Positions 2,988 through 7,157 are shown, counted from the stretch's first letter. The stretch: 15,110 nucleotides of DNA from Promethearchaeota archaeon (GCA_016839585.1 JAEOTZ010000087.1:1-15110), one strand, 5' to 3'. The notes: generated by a model from the sequence alone, not told the origin. Numbers and translations: made by a program.

Positions 2988-4970
2988 TTAACCAACTTCT
3001 ACATCCATCTTTTTCCGTTCTTCAAGCAAGGCATCTACTACGGAAGGATCGGCTAATGTGGTTACATTCCCTATTTCTGTTCCAGCTGCAATTGCTTTTA
3101 GGATTCTTCTCATAATTTTGCCACTTCGCGTCTTAGGTAACGCATCCGCAAATTGAATTACATCTGGCTGAAATACGGGACCTATCTCTTTTCTAACATG
3201 CATCCGAATCTCTTTGGATAGTTTGGCTGATTTTTCTACCCCCTGCATTAATGTAATGTAAGCCCAGATGGCCTGCCCTTTAATTTTATGCGGAAATGGA
3301 GCGACAGCGGCTTCTGCGACCTTTGGATGACTTACAAGAGCAGATTCTACTTCCATAGTTCCTATTCGATGCCCACTTACTTTAATGACATCATCTAATC
3401 GCCCAAGAATCCAATAATAACCATCTTCATCTCGTCGTGCTCCATCACCAGTATAATAGTATCCAGGATATTTTTCAAAATATGTTGATTTAAATCTCTC
3501 TGTATCACCCCAGACATCCCTTAACATTCCCGGCCAAGGTTGAGCTATAGCAAAATAGCCTCCCTCATCTGGTTCAGTAACTTCATCACCCTCGAGGTCG
3601 AATATAATTGGCTTAATACCTAAAAATGGCATGCAGCAGGAACCCGGTTTAGTTGGCGTTGCTGTAGCAATTGGTGTCATTATAAAGCCCCCTGTCTCTG
3701 TTTGCCAGTAAGTATCAACAATTGGGGCTTTACTTTTGCCGATTATATTAAAGTACCATAACCAAGCTTCTGGATTTATTGGTTCTCCAACAGTTCCTAA
3801 AACTTTTAAAGAACTTAGGTCATGTTTTTTAACTGGTTCATCTCCATATCTCATCAAGGCACGAATTGCTGTAGGGGCAGTATAGAAATGAGTTACTTTA
3901 TTACGTTCTACAATATCCCAGAATCTATCCACATCAGGATAAGTCGGAACTCCCTCAAACATTAATGTAGTTGCACCATTAGCTAAAGGTCCATATACTA
4001 TATAGGAGTGACCGGTAATCCAACCAATATCTGCAGTACAGTACCAAACATCACCATCATGGTAATTAAATACGATTTTATGTGTAAACGACGTAAATAA
4101 TATATAACCTGCAGTTGTATGTTTAACACCTTTCGGTTTTCCAGTTGTTCCACTTGTATATAAAATAAATAAAGTATCCTCAGAATCCATTACTTCAGGT
4201 TCGCATTCATCGCTCATCCCTTCAATAAAATCGTGATACCAAATATCCTTATCAGTATGCGGGACTTCTCTTCCAGATCGTTTTACTACGATAACATGCT
4301 CCATTGTTGGAACATCATCAATAATTTGAATCACATCAGCTATTTTTGGATAGAATTTCCCTGCTCTTAAGGTTTCATCGCTGGTGAATAAGAGTCGTGA
4401 GTCAGAATCATCGATTCGGTCCTTTACAGCTTCTTTTGAGAAACCACCAAAAACTATAGAATGAATAACTCCAAGGCGAGCACAAGCAAGCATTATTATT
4501 GCTAATTCAGGAACCATAGGTAACCAAATTGTTACACGATCTCCCTTTTTCAAACCAAGTTTTTTCATACCATTGGCAACTTTATTGACTTCTTTTAATA
4601 ATTCTGTGTAAGTATAAGTTTTAACATTTCCTGGCTCGTCAGCTTCCCAAATAAGAGCCACTGTATCGCCTTTTCCAACTTTTATATGCCGGTCTAAACA
4701 GTTGTAAGCAACATTTAGTTTACCTCCGACAAACCATTTACCAGGAAACAAATCTGTTTTTTCCCATACTTTTTCATAAGGCTCGAACCAGTCAAGAGAT
4801 TTCGCTTGGTCATCCCAAAAACCTTCCATATCTTCAATTGATTGTTTGTAAAGTTTCTCATATTCTTCTAAAGACATGCCAGATTTAACAAATTCCTTGT
4901 TTAACTTAATAGGATCAAAAATGCGTGTTTCAGTAAGAATACTTTCCATCTTTTTGTCTTCTTCAGACAT
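2988..4970 (-). CDS. acs: Acetate--CoA ligase (AMP-forming acetyl-CoA synthetase)
   Basis: 660 aa with ANL motifs YTSGTTGKPKG, WYCTADIGWITGHSY, DTYWQTETGG, GRLDDVIKVSGHRIG and PKTRSGKIMRR (acetylatable Lys618, nt 3117-3119). SD-like GAAGTGA upstream. Confidence 0.97.
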   Translation of the reverse strand: MSEEDKKMESILTETRIFDPIKLNKEFVKSGMSLEEYEKLYKQSIEDMEGFWDDQAKSLDWFEPYEKVWEKTDLFPGKWFVGGKLNVAYNCLDRHIKVGKGDTVALIWEADEPGNVKTYTYTELLKEVNKVANGMKKLGLKKGDRVTIWLPMVPELAIIMLACARLGVIHSIVFGGFSKEAVKDRIDDSDSRLLFTSDETLRAGKFYPKIADVIQIIDDVPTMEHVIVVKRSGREVPHTDKDIWYHDFIEGMSDECEPEVMDSEDTLFILYTSGTTGKPKGVKHTTAGYILFTSFTHKIVFNYHDGDVWYCTADIGWITGHSYIVYGPLANGATTLMFEGVPTYPDVDRFWDIVERNKVTHFYTAPTAIRALMRYGDEPVKKHDLSSLKVLGTVGEPINPEAWLWYFNIIGKSKAPIVDTYWQTETGGFIMTPIATATPTKPGSCCMPFLGIKPIIFDLEGDEVTEPDEGGYFAIAQPWPGMLRDVWGDTERFKSTYFEKYPGYYYTGDGARRDEDGYYWILGRLDDVIKVSGHRIGTMEVESALVSHPKVAEAAVAPFPHKIKGQAIWAYITLMQGVEKSAKLSKEIRMHVRKEIGPVFQPDVIQFADALPKTRSGKIMRRILKAIAAGTEIGNVTTLADPSVVDALLEERKKMDVEVG

Positions 4971-5246
4971 ATCATTTCACTTCTTTGAATTTTATTATAT
5001 TTGAATTATTTTATGTTATAATTTTTGTTAATACATTAAAAATTTTAAAGATTCATTTTCAGTCTCATCATATTTAAAATTTGTATTTTAATAAGACGAG
5101 TATAAGTCAAAAAATAGATATATTAAATCATTTTTAAACATTTTATTTATAATTTCAAAAAAATTATATGGATAAAAGAGTATATAATAAAACTATTCAA
5201 TATAATTTTAATAAAATAAAATCTATTTTTAGCGTGAGTATCAAAA
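4971..5246. promoter_or_regulatory. Divergent promoter region between acs and the CoA-transferase-like/GNAT gene
   Basis: 276-bp very AT-rich intergenic region. TATA-like TTTAAATA on the minus strand (5071-5078) and TATATAAT on the plus strand (5181-5188), each preceded by an A-rich BRE-like run. Exact sites are uncertain. Confidence 0.45.
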
Positions 5247-7157
5247 ATGAAAAATTTAGATTTTCGAGACCATGATTGGAGAAAGAAATGGACAGATAAA
5301 GAGATCACAGCAGAAGAAGCAATTAGAAAAATTATCCCAGGCAATAGAGTATTCATAGATTCTGGGTGTGCAGAACCACAATTATTAACTATGGAATTAA
5401 TTAAGCATTCAGAAAAGTTGATCGATACTGAAATTCTCCATTTTTTAACAATAGGTCCTGAAAAATATTTCAAAGATAAAGCTGAAGATCTTTTCCGACA
5501 TAATGTGTTTTTTATTGGAGAAACTCTTCGTGATGAAATAAATAAAGGACAAGCAGATTATACACCGATTTATGCCAGTGAAATTCCATCATTATTTGAG
5601 ACAGGGAGAAAACATATTGATGTAGCTCTTATCCAAATTACGCCACCAGATCCTTATGGATTTTGTTCTTTTGGAATTAATGTTGATATAGCAAAACCAA
5701 TAGCTCAATCATCTAATATCACAATTGCAGAAATTAATCCCCAGATGCCAAGAACATTAGGTAATAGCTTTATTCATATGAAAGAAATTGATTATTATGT
5801 TTATAATGATACACCATTACATGAGTTTCATTTTGATGAACCGGATGAAATTGCGAAAAGAATAGGACAGAATTTAGCAAATTTAATTGAGAACAAATCA
5901 ACGATACATGTTGGTTTTGGTGATTTACCAAATGCCGCTTTGAAGTTTTTAGGGGAAAAAAAGGATTTAGGCATGCATTCTCATTATATCACAGATAATA
6001 TAATCCCTCTTATTGAAGGAGGAGTTTTAACCTGTAGGAAAAAGAATTATCATCCAGAAAAAATTATAGCAAGTTATGCTTTAGGAACTAAGAAATTATA
6101 TAATTTTGTAAATAATAATCCATACATCGAGTTTTATCCCTCTGATTATGTTTGTAATCCTAGATTTATTGGAATGAATAAAAAACTAGTTTCAATAAAT
6201 TCTGCTCGCCAAATCGATCTAACTGGGCAAGTAAATGCTTCTACAGAAGGATATCGATTTTATTCTGGACTTGGTGAAACCATTGATTTTATGAGAGGAG
6301 CCGCTTTTTCTAAAGGAGGCAAACCGATTATAATTATTCCATCAACATCTCGAGACGGTAAAAAGTCAAGAATAGTCTCTCATTTAGATGAAGGGGCAGG
6401 GATTATGTTATCTCGGGGGGATGTCCATTATGTAGTTACTGAATGGGGTGTTGCGTATCTCCATGGTAAATCAATTAGAGAACGGATAGTTGAATTGATT
6501 TGTATTGCACACCCAAAATTCCGTCAATCATTATTAGACGAGGCTAAGAAACTAAATTATGTATATTCTGACCAGGTACTTCCATGTGATGATAATGGGA
6601 ATATTTGTCTATATCCCTCTCAATATGTAACTATTTATGAAACACACGATAAACAAAAGATAAGAATACGCCCTGTTAAAACTACGGATGAGCCATTATT
6701 AAGAGATTTATATTACTCATTGAGTGAGAGGGATAGATATTTAAGATTTTTTGAACTAAAAAAAGAATTTACTCATTCTAAAACACAATTTGAAGTAAAT
6801 ATTGATTATAACAATGTTTTTTCCATTGGAGCATTTATAGGTGAAATTGGAAATGAAAAGATGATAGGAAATGCTACCTATTATTTAAATCCTAAATTAA
6901 ATATGGGAGAGTATAGTTTCCTTGTGAGAGATGATTATAGAGGCAAAGGAATTGGTGGATTTCTTTATCAACATATAATTATTATCGCAAAAGAAAGAGG
7001 ATTAAAAGGACTTTATGGAAATATTCATATTCAAAATAAAAGTGCTGTCAGAATAATTAGAACGGGTGGATATACTAGAATAACTCCTCCGGGAAATCTT
7101 GATGGAAAAGAACTGTTCTATGAAGTCTTTTTTGATAAAGAAGATTCAACTAATTGA
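5247..7157 (+). CDS. Acetyl-CoA hydrolase/4-hydroxybutyrate CoA-transferase-like domain fused to a C-terminal Pat-like GNAT acetyltransferase
   Basis: The N-terminal ~440 aa carry family motifs (AEINPQMPRTLG, INSARQIDLTGQV, DVHYVVTEWGVAYLHGKSIRER, IAHPKFR). From aa ~456 there is a GNAT domain (IRPVKTTD, SLSERDRYLRFF, GEYSFLVRDDYRGKGIG). Confidence 0.92.
   Translation: MKNLDFRDHDWRKKWTDKEITAEEAIRKIIPGNRVFIDSGCAEPQLLTMELIKHSEKLIDTEILHFLTIGPEKYFKDKAEDLFRHNVFFIGETLRDEINKGQADYTPIYASEIPSLFETGRKHIDVALIQITPPDPYGFCSFGINVDIAKPIAQSSNITIAEINPQMPRTLGNSFIHMKEIDYYVYNDTPLHEFHFDEPDEIAKRIGQNLANLIENKSTIHVGFGDLPNAALKFLGEKKDLGMHSHYITDNIIPLIEGGVLTCRKKNYHPEKIIASYALGTKKLYNFVNNNPYIEFYPSDYVCNPRFIGMNKKLVSINSARQIDLTGQVNASTEGYRFYSGLGETIDFMRGAAFSKGGKPIIIIPSTSRDGKKSRIVSHLDEGAGIMLSRGDVHYVVTEWGVAYLHGKSIRERIVELICIAHPKFRQSLLDEAKKLNYVYSDQVLPCDDNGNICLYPSQYVTIYETHDKQKIRIRPVKTTDEPLLRDLYYSLSERDRYLRFFELKKEFTHSKTQFEVNIDYNNVFSIGAFIGEIGNEKMIGNATYYLNPKLNMGEYSFLVRDDYRGKGIGGFLYQHIIIIAKERGLKGLYGNIHIQNKSAVRIIRTGGYTRITPPGNLDGKELFYEVFFDKEDSTN
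7108..7157 (+). repeat. Direct repeat copy 1 (3' end of the CoA-transferase-like/GNAT gene)
   Basis: 7108-7147 matches 8311-8350 at 36/40 nt, with a perfect 24-nt core TATGAAGTCTTTTTTGATAAAGAA at 7119-7142. Confidence 0.9.

Follow-up and report, generated by a model that had tools for sequence, protein, structure and literature searches.

A stretch of DNA of 15,110 nucleotides from a Promethearchaeota archaeon (GCA_016839585.1, JAEOTZ010000087.1:1-15110; the whole stretch is hereafter called the window) carries acs, a gene for AMP-forming acetyl-coenzyme A (acetyl-CoA) synthetase, head-to-head with a gene whose product joins a class I CoA-transferase-fold domain to a GNAT domain resembling the protein lysine acetyltransferases Pat and PatZ. 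We propose, at a probability of roughly 0.6, that acs and this fusion gene together work as a switch that controls acetate activation by acetylation. Regulation of Acs through lysine acetylation is a textbook example from bacterial metabolism and, to our knowledge, the enzymes of Acs acetylation are poorly known in archaea, Asgard archaea in particular. Public databases label the fusion just "GNAT family N-acetyltransferase" or "acyl-CoA hydrolase/GNAT". The acs gene occupies positions 2988–4970 on the minus strand (660 amino acids, aa) and the fusion gene positions 5247–7157 on the plus strand (636 aa). An earlier reading of this DNA, made without database searches (the sequence-only reading), had described the two genes as diverging across 276 bp, and the coordinates bear this out (spacer, 4971–5246).

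The mechanism that we infer comprises acetylation of Acs, an effect of this acetylation on Acs activity and ligand sensing by the N-terminal domain of the fusion. The GNAT domain would use acetyl-CoA, the product of the pathway itself, to acetylate Lys618, which lies in the C-terminal domain of Acs. As in bacteria, this would block the adenylation half-reaction, and acetate activation would be shut off when acetyl-CoA is plentiful. Removal of the acetyl group would fall to one of the sirtuins or histone deacetylase (HDAC)-type deacetylases of the genome; with four SIR2 and five Hist_deacetyl proteins encoded there, erasers are available. The CoA-transferase-fold domain would replace the regulatory domain of Pat/PatZ, which resembles nucleoside diphosphate (NDP)-forming acetyl-CoA synthetase (ACD). 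In the clade of the window fusion, which we call clade A, this domain would have lost CoA-transfer chemistry and would probably still bind CoA or acyl-CoA, or hold an oligomer together, and in this way tune the GNAT domain. Both proteins look soluble and of ordinary size, so direct testing of the hypothesis is feasible.

Acs and its presumed target lysine

The product of 2988–4970 is, by its full-length match to curated models and its core motifs, an AMP-forming acetyl-CoA synthetase. Its scores of 979 bits for the NCBIfam acetate--CoA ligase model NF001208 and 947 bits for TIGR02188 exceed the respective cut-offs of 657 and 725; it has the Pfam domains ACAS_N, AMP-binding and AMP-binding_C, and carries the core motifs YTSGTTGKPKG (residues 271–281), WQTETGG (422–428) and PKTRSGK (612–618), the last of which contains the A10 lysine in PxxxxGK. 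By tblastn, acs is present in one full-length copy in the genome, plus 13 more distant AMP-binding ligases.

A lysine in a motif of the PKTRSGK type is the site acetylated by Pat-type enzymes in characterised Acs proteins. Retention of this motif with Lys618 (codon 3117–3119, minus strand) had been pointed out from the sequence, and it extends well beyond the window: the motif was kept in 15 of 15 fusion-linked Acs proteins, aligned at 57–90% identity to the window Acs, and the segment L611–K625 was invariant among them, A626 being the exception.

The GNAT domain and its predicted complex with Acs

The fusion matched the Pfam families AcetylCoA_hydro (residues 12–188), AcetylCoA_hyd_C (280–433) and Acetyltransf_1 (508–604). 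Judged by sequence comparison, its GNAT domain is very probably a Pat-type lysine acetyltransferase. The Pat hallmarks quoted in the sequence-only reading all lie at the residues given there: IRP at 474–476, LSERDRYLRFF at 492–502, GEYSFLV at 554–560, containing Glu555 at the GNAT catalytic position (codon 6909–6911, plus strand), and RGKGIG at 565–570, which has the (Q/R)xxGxG/A pattern of the acetyl-CoA loop. Residues R475, D481, Y490, R500, D520, E555, G568 and N597 were invariant in 60 fusions.

The C-terminal 205 residues of 15 diverse fusions were made into a profile, which was searched against all PDB sequences. The nine top matches were all protein lysine acetyltransferases, among them E. 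coli PatZ (6e-35), the GNAT of S. lividans PatA (1.5e-33), Sulfolobus Pat (SsoPat, 2e-18) and the mycobacterial MsPat and MtPat (3e-18 to 1e-16); the next match, a GNAT of another kind, came at 7e-9, a drop that we put at ten orders of magnitude. The match to PatZ started in the linker preceding the GNAT core and aligned Glu555 with the Glu of the PatZ motif AEF. The Pat-type linker and GNAT domain of the fusion together span residues 455–612 (6609–7082, plus strand). The fusion also matched the NCBIfam mycobacterial Pat model at 7e-11, under the equivalog cut-off. In the AlphaFold2 model of the fusion (predicted local distance difference test, pLDDT, 89.6; predicted TM-score 0.84), Foldseek matched the GNAT domain to 4u5y, a structure of the SlPat GNAT in complex with an Acs C-terminal domain, with a TM-score of 0.89 and a root-mean-square deviation of 2.4 Å, so that the domain is of the Pat type by both sequence and fold. 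Searched against a library of 1.84 billion representatives, the same profile also retrieved the classical ACD-GNAT Pats P0248, P0269 and P0207 (1e-41 to 1e-45), indicating that one GNAT subgroup has been joined to different regulatory domains.

We also predicted the complex of the whole fusion with Acs residues 515–660, together with three controls. The complex scored 0.61, compared to 0.00 for the best of the three controls; 58 of the 80 solved complexes reached 0.61, as did 2 of the 110 mismatched pairs, and both counts are rough because our own alignments were used. The runs shared at least 92% of contacts, with a partner pLDDT of at least 82. In the model, Acs residues 611 and 614–619 lie against GNAT residues 498–507, 544–557 and 590–596, and K618 sits in the GNAT cleft, contacting F502, S557 and I592; of all pairs, those between F502 and K618 and between E555 and 614–616 are defined best. 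Since a similar complex has already been solved, the pass may reflect memory of 4u5y, and what the complex model shows is likeness to 4u5y, not that the fusion and Acs bind.

Linkage of the fusion gene with acs

The fusion–acs pairing recurs in three Asgard families (families are numbered f1, f2 and so on) in three different arrangements, so the conserved linkage on which the sequence-only reading depended is real, and the arrangement is more than chance. We searched 301 Asgard genomes and fetched loci from them; all counts were taken over related, non-independent genomes. In clade A, acs lay within 6 kb on the same contig, on the opposite strand and diverging, in 39 of the 57 genomes with a fusion orthologue, usually at a distance of 180–450 bp, and most of the remaining clade A genomes had a contig end beside the gene. 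Of the genomes with a fusion and apparently no acs, four were checked; in three of them there are contig ends at that place or an acs truncated by one. In f9, whose fusions (~44% identity) have an intact transferase site, acs was divergent and 1–3.6 kb off in 12 of 13 fetched loci and in 18 of 24 paired listings. A gene of the MFS or of the GPR1/FUN34/YaaH acetate-permease family stands between the two, and because it is co-directional with acs, the f9 fusion faces a transporter–acs unit. In f18, acs and the fusion gene are convergent and 71–130 bp apart in two genomes. All sampled Asgard families with full-length fusions (f1, f2, f9, f18, f20 and f24) also have acs, and genus g2 of f1 has neither gene (0/4 each). 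Four f9 loci (L058, L060, L062 and L063) carry two tandem fusion genes beside the transporter–acs unit, both with intact transferase motifs.

We consider Acs the likely physiological target of the fusion GNAT. Several observations weigh against this reading, and many of them would fit a fusion that acetylates proteins more generally, with targets different from Acs or with many of them, for instance other acyl-CoA ligases or chromatin proteins; its adjacency to acs would then be inherited gene order. First, Pat enzymes usually have several substrates: Sulfolobus Pat, one solved relative of this GNAT, acts on a chromatin protein, and the genome has 13 further AMP-binding ligases. Second, the genes downstream of the clade A fusion, for PAP2, a GTPase and TFIIB, are conserved as well, so the clade A linkage is largely inherited synteny that reaches unrelated genes; and in one genome (G246) the clade A fusion has an actin-family gene (L079:1157-2326) upstream, not acs, within the 2.4 kb available. 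Third, a second lineage of fusions in the same families, paralogue B, was not beside acs in any of 11 loci, nor were the fusions of f24 and f20, and there was no acs beside four distant members of the family (four loci, two or more of which have bacterial neighbour genes). Fourth, f5, f14, f16, f23 and f27 have acs without a fusion, so the fusion is not a universal acs regulator. Lastly, no N-terminal domain residue contacts Acs in the complex model, so the model offers no clue to that domain's mode of action.

A general acetyltransferase with inherited neighbours does not readily account for three families that hold acs in three different arrangements, or for the f9 partner being a transporter–acs pair that includes an acetate-permease family gene. 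The insertions point the same way: in genus g4, unrelated genes (DUF4386, ferredoxin-like, Rce1-like and a 1248-aa protein) that contribute nothing to the system have come to lie between the fusion gene and acs, and the inserted genes found in some genomes never parted the pair beyond about 6 kb. We regard the general acetyltransferase as unlikely and favour the switch acting on Acs.

A remodelled transferase site in the N-terminal domain

The N-terminal domain (residues 12–433; 5280–6545, plus strand) has the fold of 4-hydroxybutyrate CoA-transferases. It scored 105 bits against PF02550 and 200 bits against PF13336, matched the 4-hydroxybutyrate CoA-transferase 9vag with an E value of 3e-116, and in Foldseek matched 2oas and 3gk7 with TM-scores of 0.95 and 0.93. 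In class I CoA-transferases a Glu is the nucleophile, the external oxyanion hole is made by the backbone NH of a Gly in GxGG that is described as strictly conserved, and the internal one by an Asn carboxamide, which also braces the Glu; in AarC these catalytic Glu, Asn and Gly residues are in mutual contact (PMC4876117). The N-terminal domain has the class I fold, but the Glu nucleophile, the oxyanion Gly and the oxyanion Asn are all absent from it.

Catalytic positions were read from an alignment of the domain that included canonical paralogues and an enzyme of the AarC family, ScpC of E. coli, and conservation was followed over 120 orthologue clusters at 73–94% identity, in which the N-terminal domain is at least 73% identical throughout. 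The nucleophile motif is HTE in the PDB enzymes, HSE in the paralogue P0122 and HSH in the window fusion, whose His246 (codon 5982–5984, plus strand) takes the Glu position in 115 of the 120 orthologues; ScpC has Glu there. Cys303 (codon 6153–6155, plus strand), found in 120/120, replaces the conserved Asn that serves as internal oxyanion hole in YVN(D/N)P, and its counterpart in ScpC is an Asn; equivalence of this position with Asn347 of AarC is drawn from the motif and the 41-residue Asn–Gly spacing, AarC itself lying outside the alignment. This Asn is present in 88% of the fusions that keep the Glu. At the external oxyanion hole GGQ, which ScpC has in its canonical form, has become GET (window motif GLGET), with Glu344 (codon 6276–6278, plus strand) in place of the second Gly; position 344 is Asp in 61 and Glu in 59 orthologues, and Thr345 follows in 119. 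At the position of a pocket Gln, His221 is likewise present in all 120.

On this alignment, the clade A site is incompatible with CoA transfer, yet under selection. The domain had been called catalytically dead, which agrees with the replacement of all three catalytic elements, but the site looks remodelled, not merely dead, because Cys303, His246, His221 and Asp/Glu344 are themselves conserved. By analogy, the domain may sense a CoA thioester, a proposal that we hold tentatively and at somewhat less than even odds. In PatZ, acetyl-CoA is bound by the ACD domain, which brings about cooperative changes and contributes to the shape of the Acs pocket (PMC12184503).

A further-reaching idea is that the former transferase site in clade A has been rebuilt, with Cys303, His246, His221 and Asp/Glu344 as a new catalytic or sensing centre that couples CoA-thioester or redox status to Acs acetylation. 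Candidate chemistries would be a thiol-based acetyl acceptor, an acetyl-CoA hydrolase, or a redox or metal site. We think this improbable; if true, it would mean that, in the lineage of archaea nearest to eukaryotes, a neo-functionalised enzyme fold regulates a lysine acetyltransferase. A related alternative to a dead domain, to which we give slightly lower odds still, is that the same four residues give it a new enzymatic activity or a new site for a ligand or metal: one possibility is a Cys–His–acid triad that takes or hydrolyses the acetyl group of acetyl-CoA, another a thiol or metal site through which redox or CoA status is signalled to the GNAT domain. The near-invariance of the replacements (Cys303, His221 and Asp/Glu344 each 120/120, His246 115/120, Thr345 119/120) and the identity of at least 73% across the whole domain speak for a rebuilt site, and the replaced residues should be neighbours because the original three touch in AarC (PMC4876117). 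At 344, Asp and Glu interchange freely (61 versus 59), which argues against precise catalytic geometry, and other lineages lost the triad in unrelated ways, which fits relaxed constraint. We know of no precedent for such a rebuilt centre in the CoA-transferase fold.

The wider fusion family

Full-length fusion matches were found in 6 of 30 sampled Asgard families, and in >90% of genomes in the three best-sampled of these six. The closest homologues of the window fusion are named as proteins of Promethearchaeota, Hodarchaeota, Thorarchaeota, Hermodarchaeota or Lokiarchaeota metagenome-assembled genomes. In the library search, 737 cluster representatives fell below 1e-30, and ~50 of the best 150 among them were CoA-transferase–GNAT fusions. 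The architecture was also found in bacteria, so it is not specific to Asgard archaea. In a tree from a quick search, midpoint-rooted and with some long branches, clade A and an intact paralogue clade, B, lie side by side within f1 and f2, and the other families lie across the root.

The genome of the window encodes a second full-length fusion, P0122 (G000 C11:19879-21798; L071:8879-10798), which is 52% identical to the window fusion. It belongs to paralogue B, keeps HSE, YCND and GGQ, and hence an intact Glu/Asn/GGQ site, and is not beside acs. Elsewhere in the family, the fusions of f9, f18 and f24 retain Glu and GGQ and those of f20 have Cys. The loss of the transferase residues described above is thus confined to the clade of the window. 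The sequence-only reading had proposed an apparently dead N-terminal domain as the sensor of acyl-CoA or CoA; since the acs-linked fusions of f9 and f18 and the unlinked P0122 all keep the catalytic residues, the pseudo-enzyme state is not what ties the fusion to acs. A conserved partner of paralogue B was also sought. The candidates proved to be just the local gene order kept in f1 (an HhH-GPD glycosylase, a radical-SAM/B12 protein and others), so no target can be proposed for this paralogue. In the window genome, the P0122 gene follows genes for a CdhD-like Fe-S protein and a methyltransferase; the CdhD-like gene was not conserved elsewhere.

To follow the catalytic residues through the family, we surveyed 56 long proteins of the best 150 matches (50%-identity library) together with P0002 and P0122, ~50 of these being fusions; alignment error is possible in the most distant rows. 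The full Glu/Asn/Gly triad occurred in just 15 of the ~50 fusion clusters (50% identity). Glu alone was kept in 30; Asp took its place in 10, and roughly a dozen had other residues. At the Glu position of the GNAT, all but two had Glu or Asp. With the triad complete in so few clusters and the GNAT Glu/Asp nearly universal, transferase chemistry looks dispensable and the GNAT does not, which suggests that the family needs GNAT chemistry and often not transferase chemistry. Intact, degenerate and conserved-remodelled transferase sites form a natural series for study, and their comparison could show a path from enzyme to sensor.

One metagenomic protein of 1013 aa, P0214 (L076:8001-11042), joins the CoA-transferase-like and Pat-type GNAT domains to a histone-deacetylase domain (268 bits), a Rosetta-stone connection between the family and reversible acetylation. 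It also bears on whether the fusion could instead be a bifunctional metabolic enzyme, with a transferase domain that makes or binds acyl-CoA and a GNAT that N-acylates a small molecule, not a protein. The many family members with an apparently intact transferase site would suit such an enzyme, as would the broad range of small molecules that GNATs generally acylate. It sits badly with the clade of the window, which is without the nucleophile and both oxyanion elements, with a GNAT that belongs to the Pat subgroup down to the Pat-specific linker, with the HDAC fusion itself, and with a complex model that puts the Acs lysine loop in the GNAT cleft. We judge a bifunctional metabolic enzyme very unlikely, far less probable than the acetylation switch.

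Two further relatives were seen. A bacterial protein, P0135 (L075:8001-10883), carries an additional 4Fe-4S domain at its N-terminus, and its nucleophile position is occupied by Gln; a member of its cluster, P0285, is named Myxococcales bacterium. The window genome also holds a stand-alone 4-hydroxybutyrate-CoA-transferase-like gene (G000 C41:19519-20815; L072:5519-6815) with the canonical HTE and a frameshift near residue 317.

Relation to known acetylation systems

Bacterial GNAT lysine acetyltransferases have been sorted into types I–V, with regulatory domains that are ACD-like, cyclic AMP (cAMP)-binding, ACT or NADP-binding (reviews and a 2025 PatZ study). A regulatory domain of the CoA-transferase fold is absent from these classifications, and we found no description of a CoA-transferase–GNAT fusion in the literature. 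The Pfam domains of type I and II Pats (CoA_binding, Succ_CoA_lig and ATP-grasp_5) were not found in the fusion and do appear in P0248 and P0269. The idea of a different regulator class is supported for the CoA-transferase-type domain, which these classifications do not include; the GNAT is of a known Pat subgroup. The family would add a further regulatory-domain class, the CoA-transferase fold, to the Pat acetyltransferases.

Pat/PatZ of Salmonella enterica and E. coli, which acts with CobB (PDB 9it0, 9isq), has a GNAT of the same subgroup, linker included (6e-35). Like the fusion, it has a large N-terminal domain that comes from an acetyl-CoA-handling enzyme and has lost a catalytic residue; the presumed target is the same Acs lysine, and deacetylase genes are present in the genome. 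Unlike Pat/PatZ, the fusion has a regulatory domain of the class I CoA-transferase fold, not of the NDP-forming ACD fold, is 636 residues long compared to about 880, and comes from an archaeon. In enterobacteria pat is not known to be linked to acs, unlike the fusion gene. Regulation of PatZ by acetyl-CoA binding and tetramerisation was shown experimentally (PMC12184503), whereas regulation of the fusion is proposed by analogy.

S. lividans PatA, a type II enzyme (4nxy, 4u5y), has a related GNAT (1.5e-33, TM-score 0.89), and the predicted Acs interface of the fusion resembles its solved complex; unlike the fusion, PatA has an N-terminal GNAT followed by an ACD-like domain and is without the CoA-transferase fold. 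The type III Pats, namely MsPat and MtPat (cAMP), the Micromonospora ACT-GNAT and the Myxococcus NADP-binding GNAT, have the same order as the fusion, an N-terminal regulatory domain and then a Pat-type GNAT. Acs is a target of these enzymes, and the PDB entries 4orf and 4ava match the fusion GNAT profile at 3e-18 to 1e-16, but their sensors are small ligand-binding modules with known ligands, unrelated to CoA-transferases.

The gene arrangement has a counterpart in Bacillus subtilis acsA/acuABC, where acs is divergent from its acetyltransferase gene, as in the window (PMC11255334, PMC13121692). AcuA is a single-domain GNAT of another subgroup than that of the fusion, and the regulator AcuB and the deacetylase AcuC are separate proteins encoded in the same operon. 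Unlike acuABC, the window has no deacetylase gene in a Pfam scan. On the transferase side, the 4-hydroxybutyrate CoA-transferases (AbfT 3gk7, 2oas, 9vag) and RipA share the fold of the N-terminal domain (TM-score 0.93–0.95, 3e-116); unlike them, this domain has its Glu, Asn and Gly elements replaced and is fused to a GNAT. AarC and ScpC served as mechanistic references.

Other features of the window

The window has a G+C content of ~28% and carries the Asgard hallmark genes for a Gtr1/RagA-Arf-type GTPase, TFIIB and a LAGLIDADG protein. The G+C content of acs (window 3001–5000) is 35–41%, compared to 25–30% in neighbouring genes. When 11 clade A spacers were aligned, the spacer between acs and the fusion gene showed a single conserved block at ~5126–5175, with the core TTTAAACATTTTATTTATAATTTCAAAAA, and the remainder was unalignable; the block may be a shared promoter or operator.

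The LAGLIDADG protein is encoded beside acs at 38–2974, and its N-terminal 485–488 residues recur at ~79% identity on contigs C75 and C5 of the same genome (G000). Inside a further contig, at C50:14970-15239 (L073), a fragment of 90 aa stands alone that is 92% identical to Acs residues 571–660, Lys618 motif included. A past duplication, or a homing endonuclease acting at the 3' end of acs, could have left it behind.

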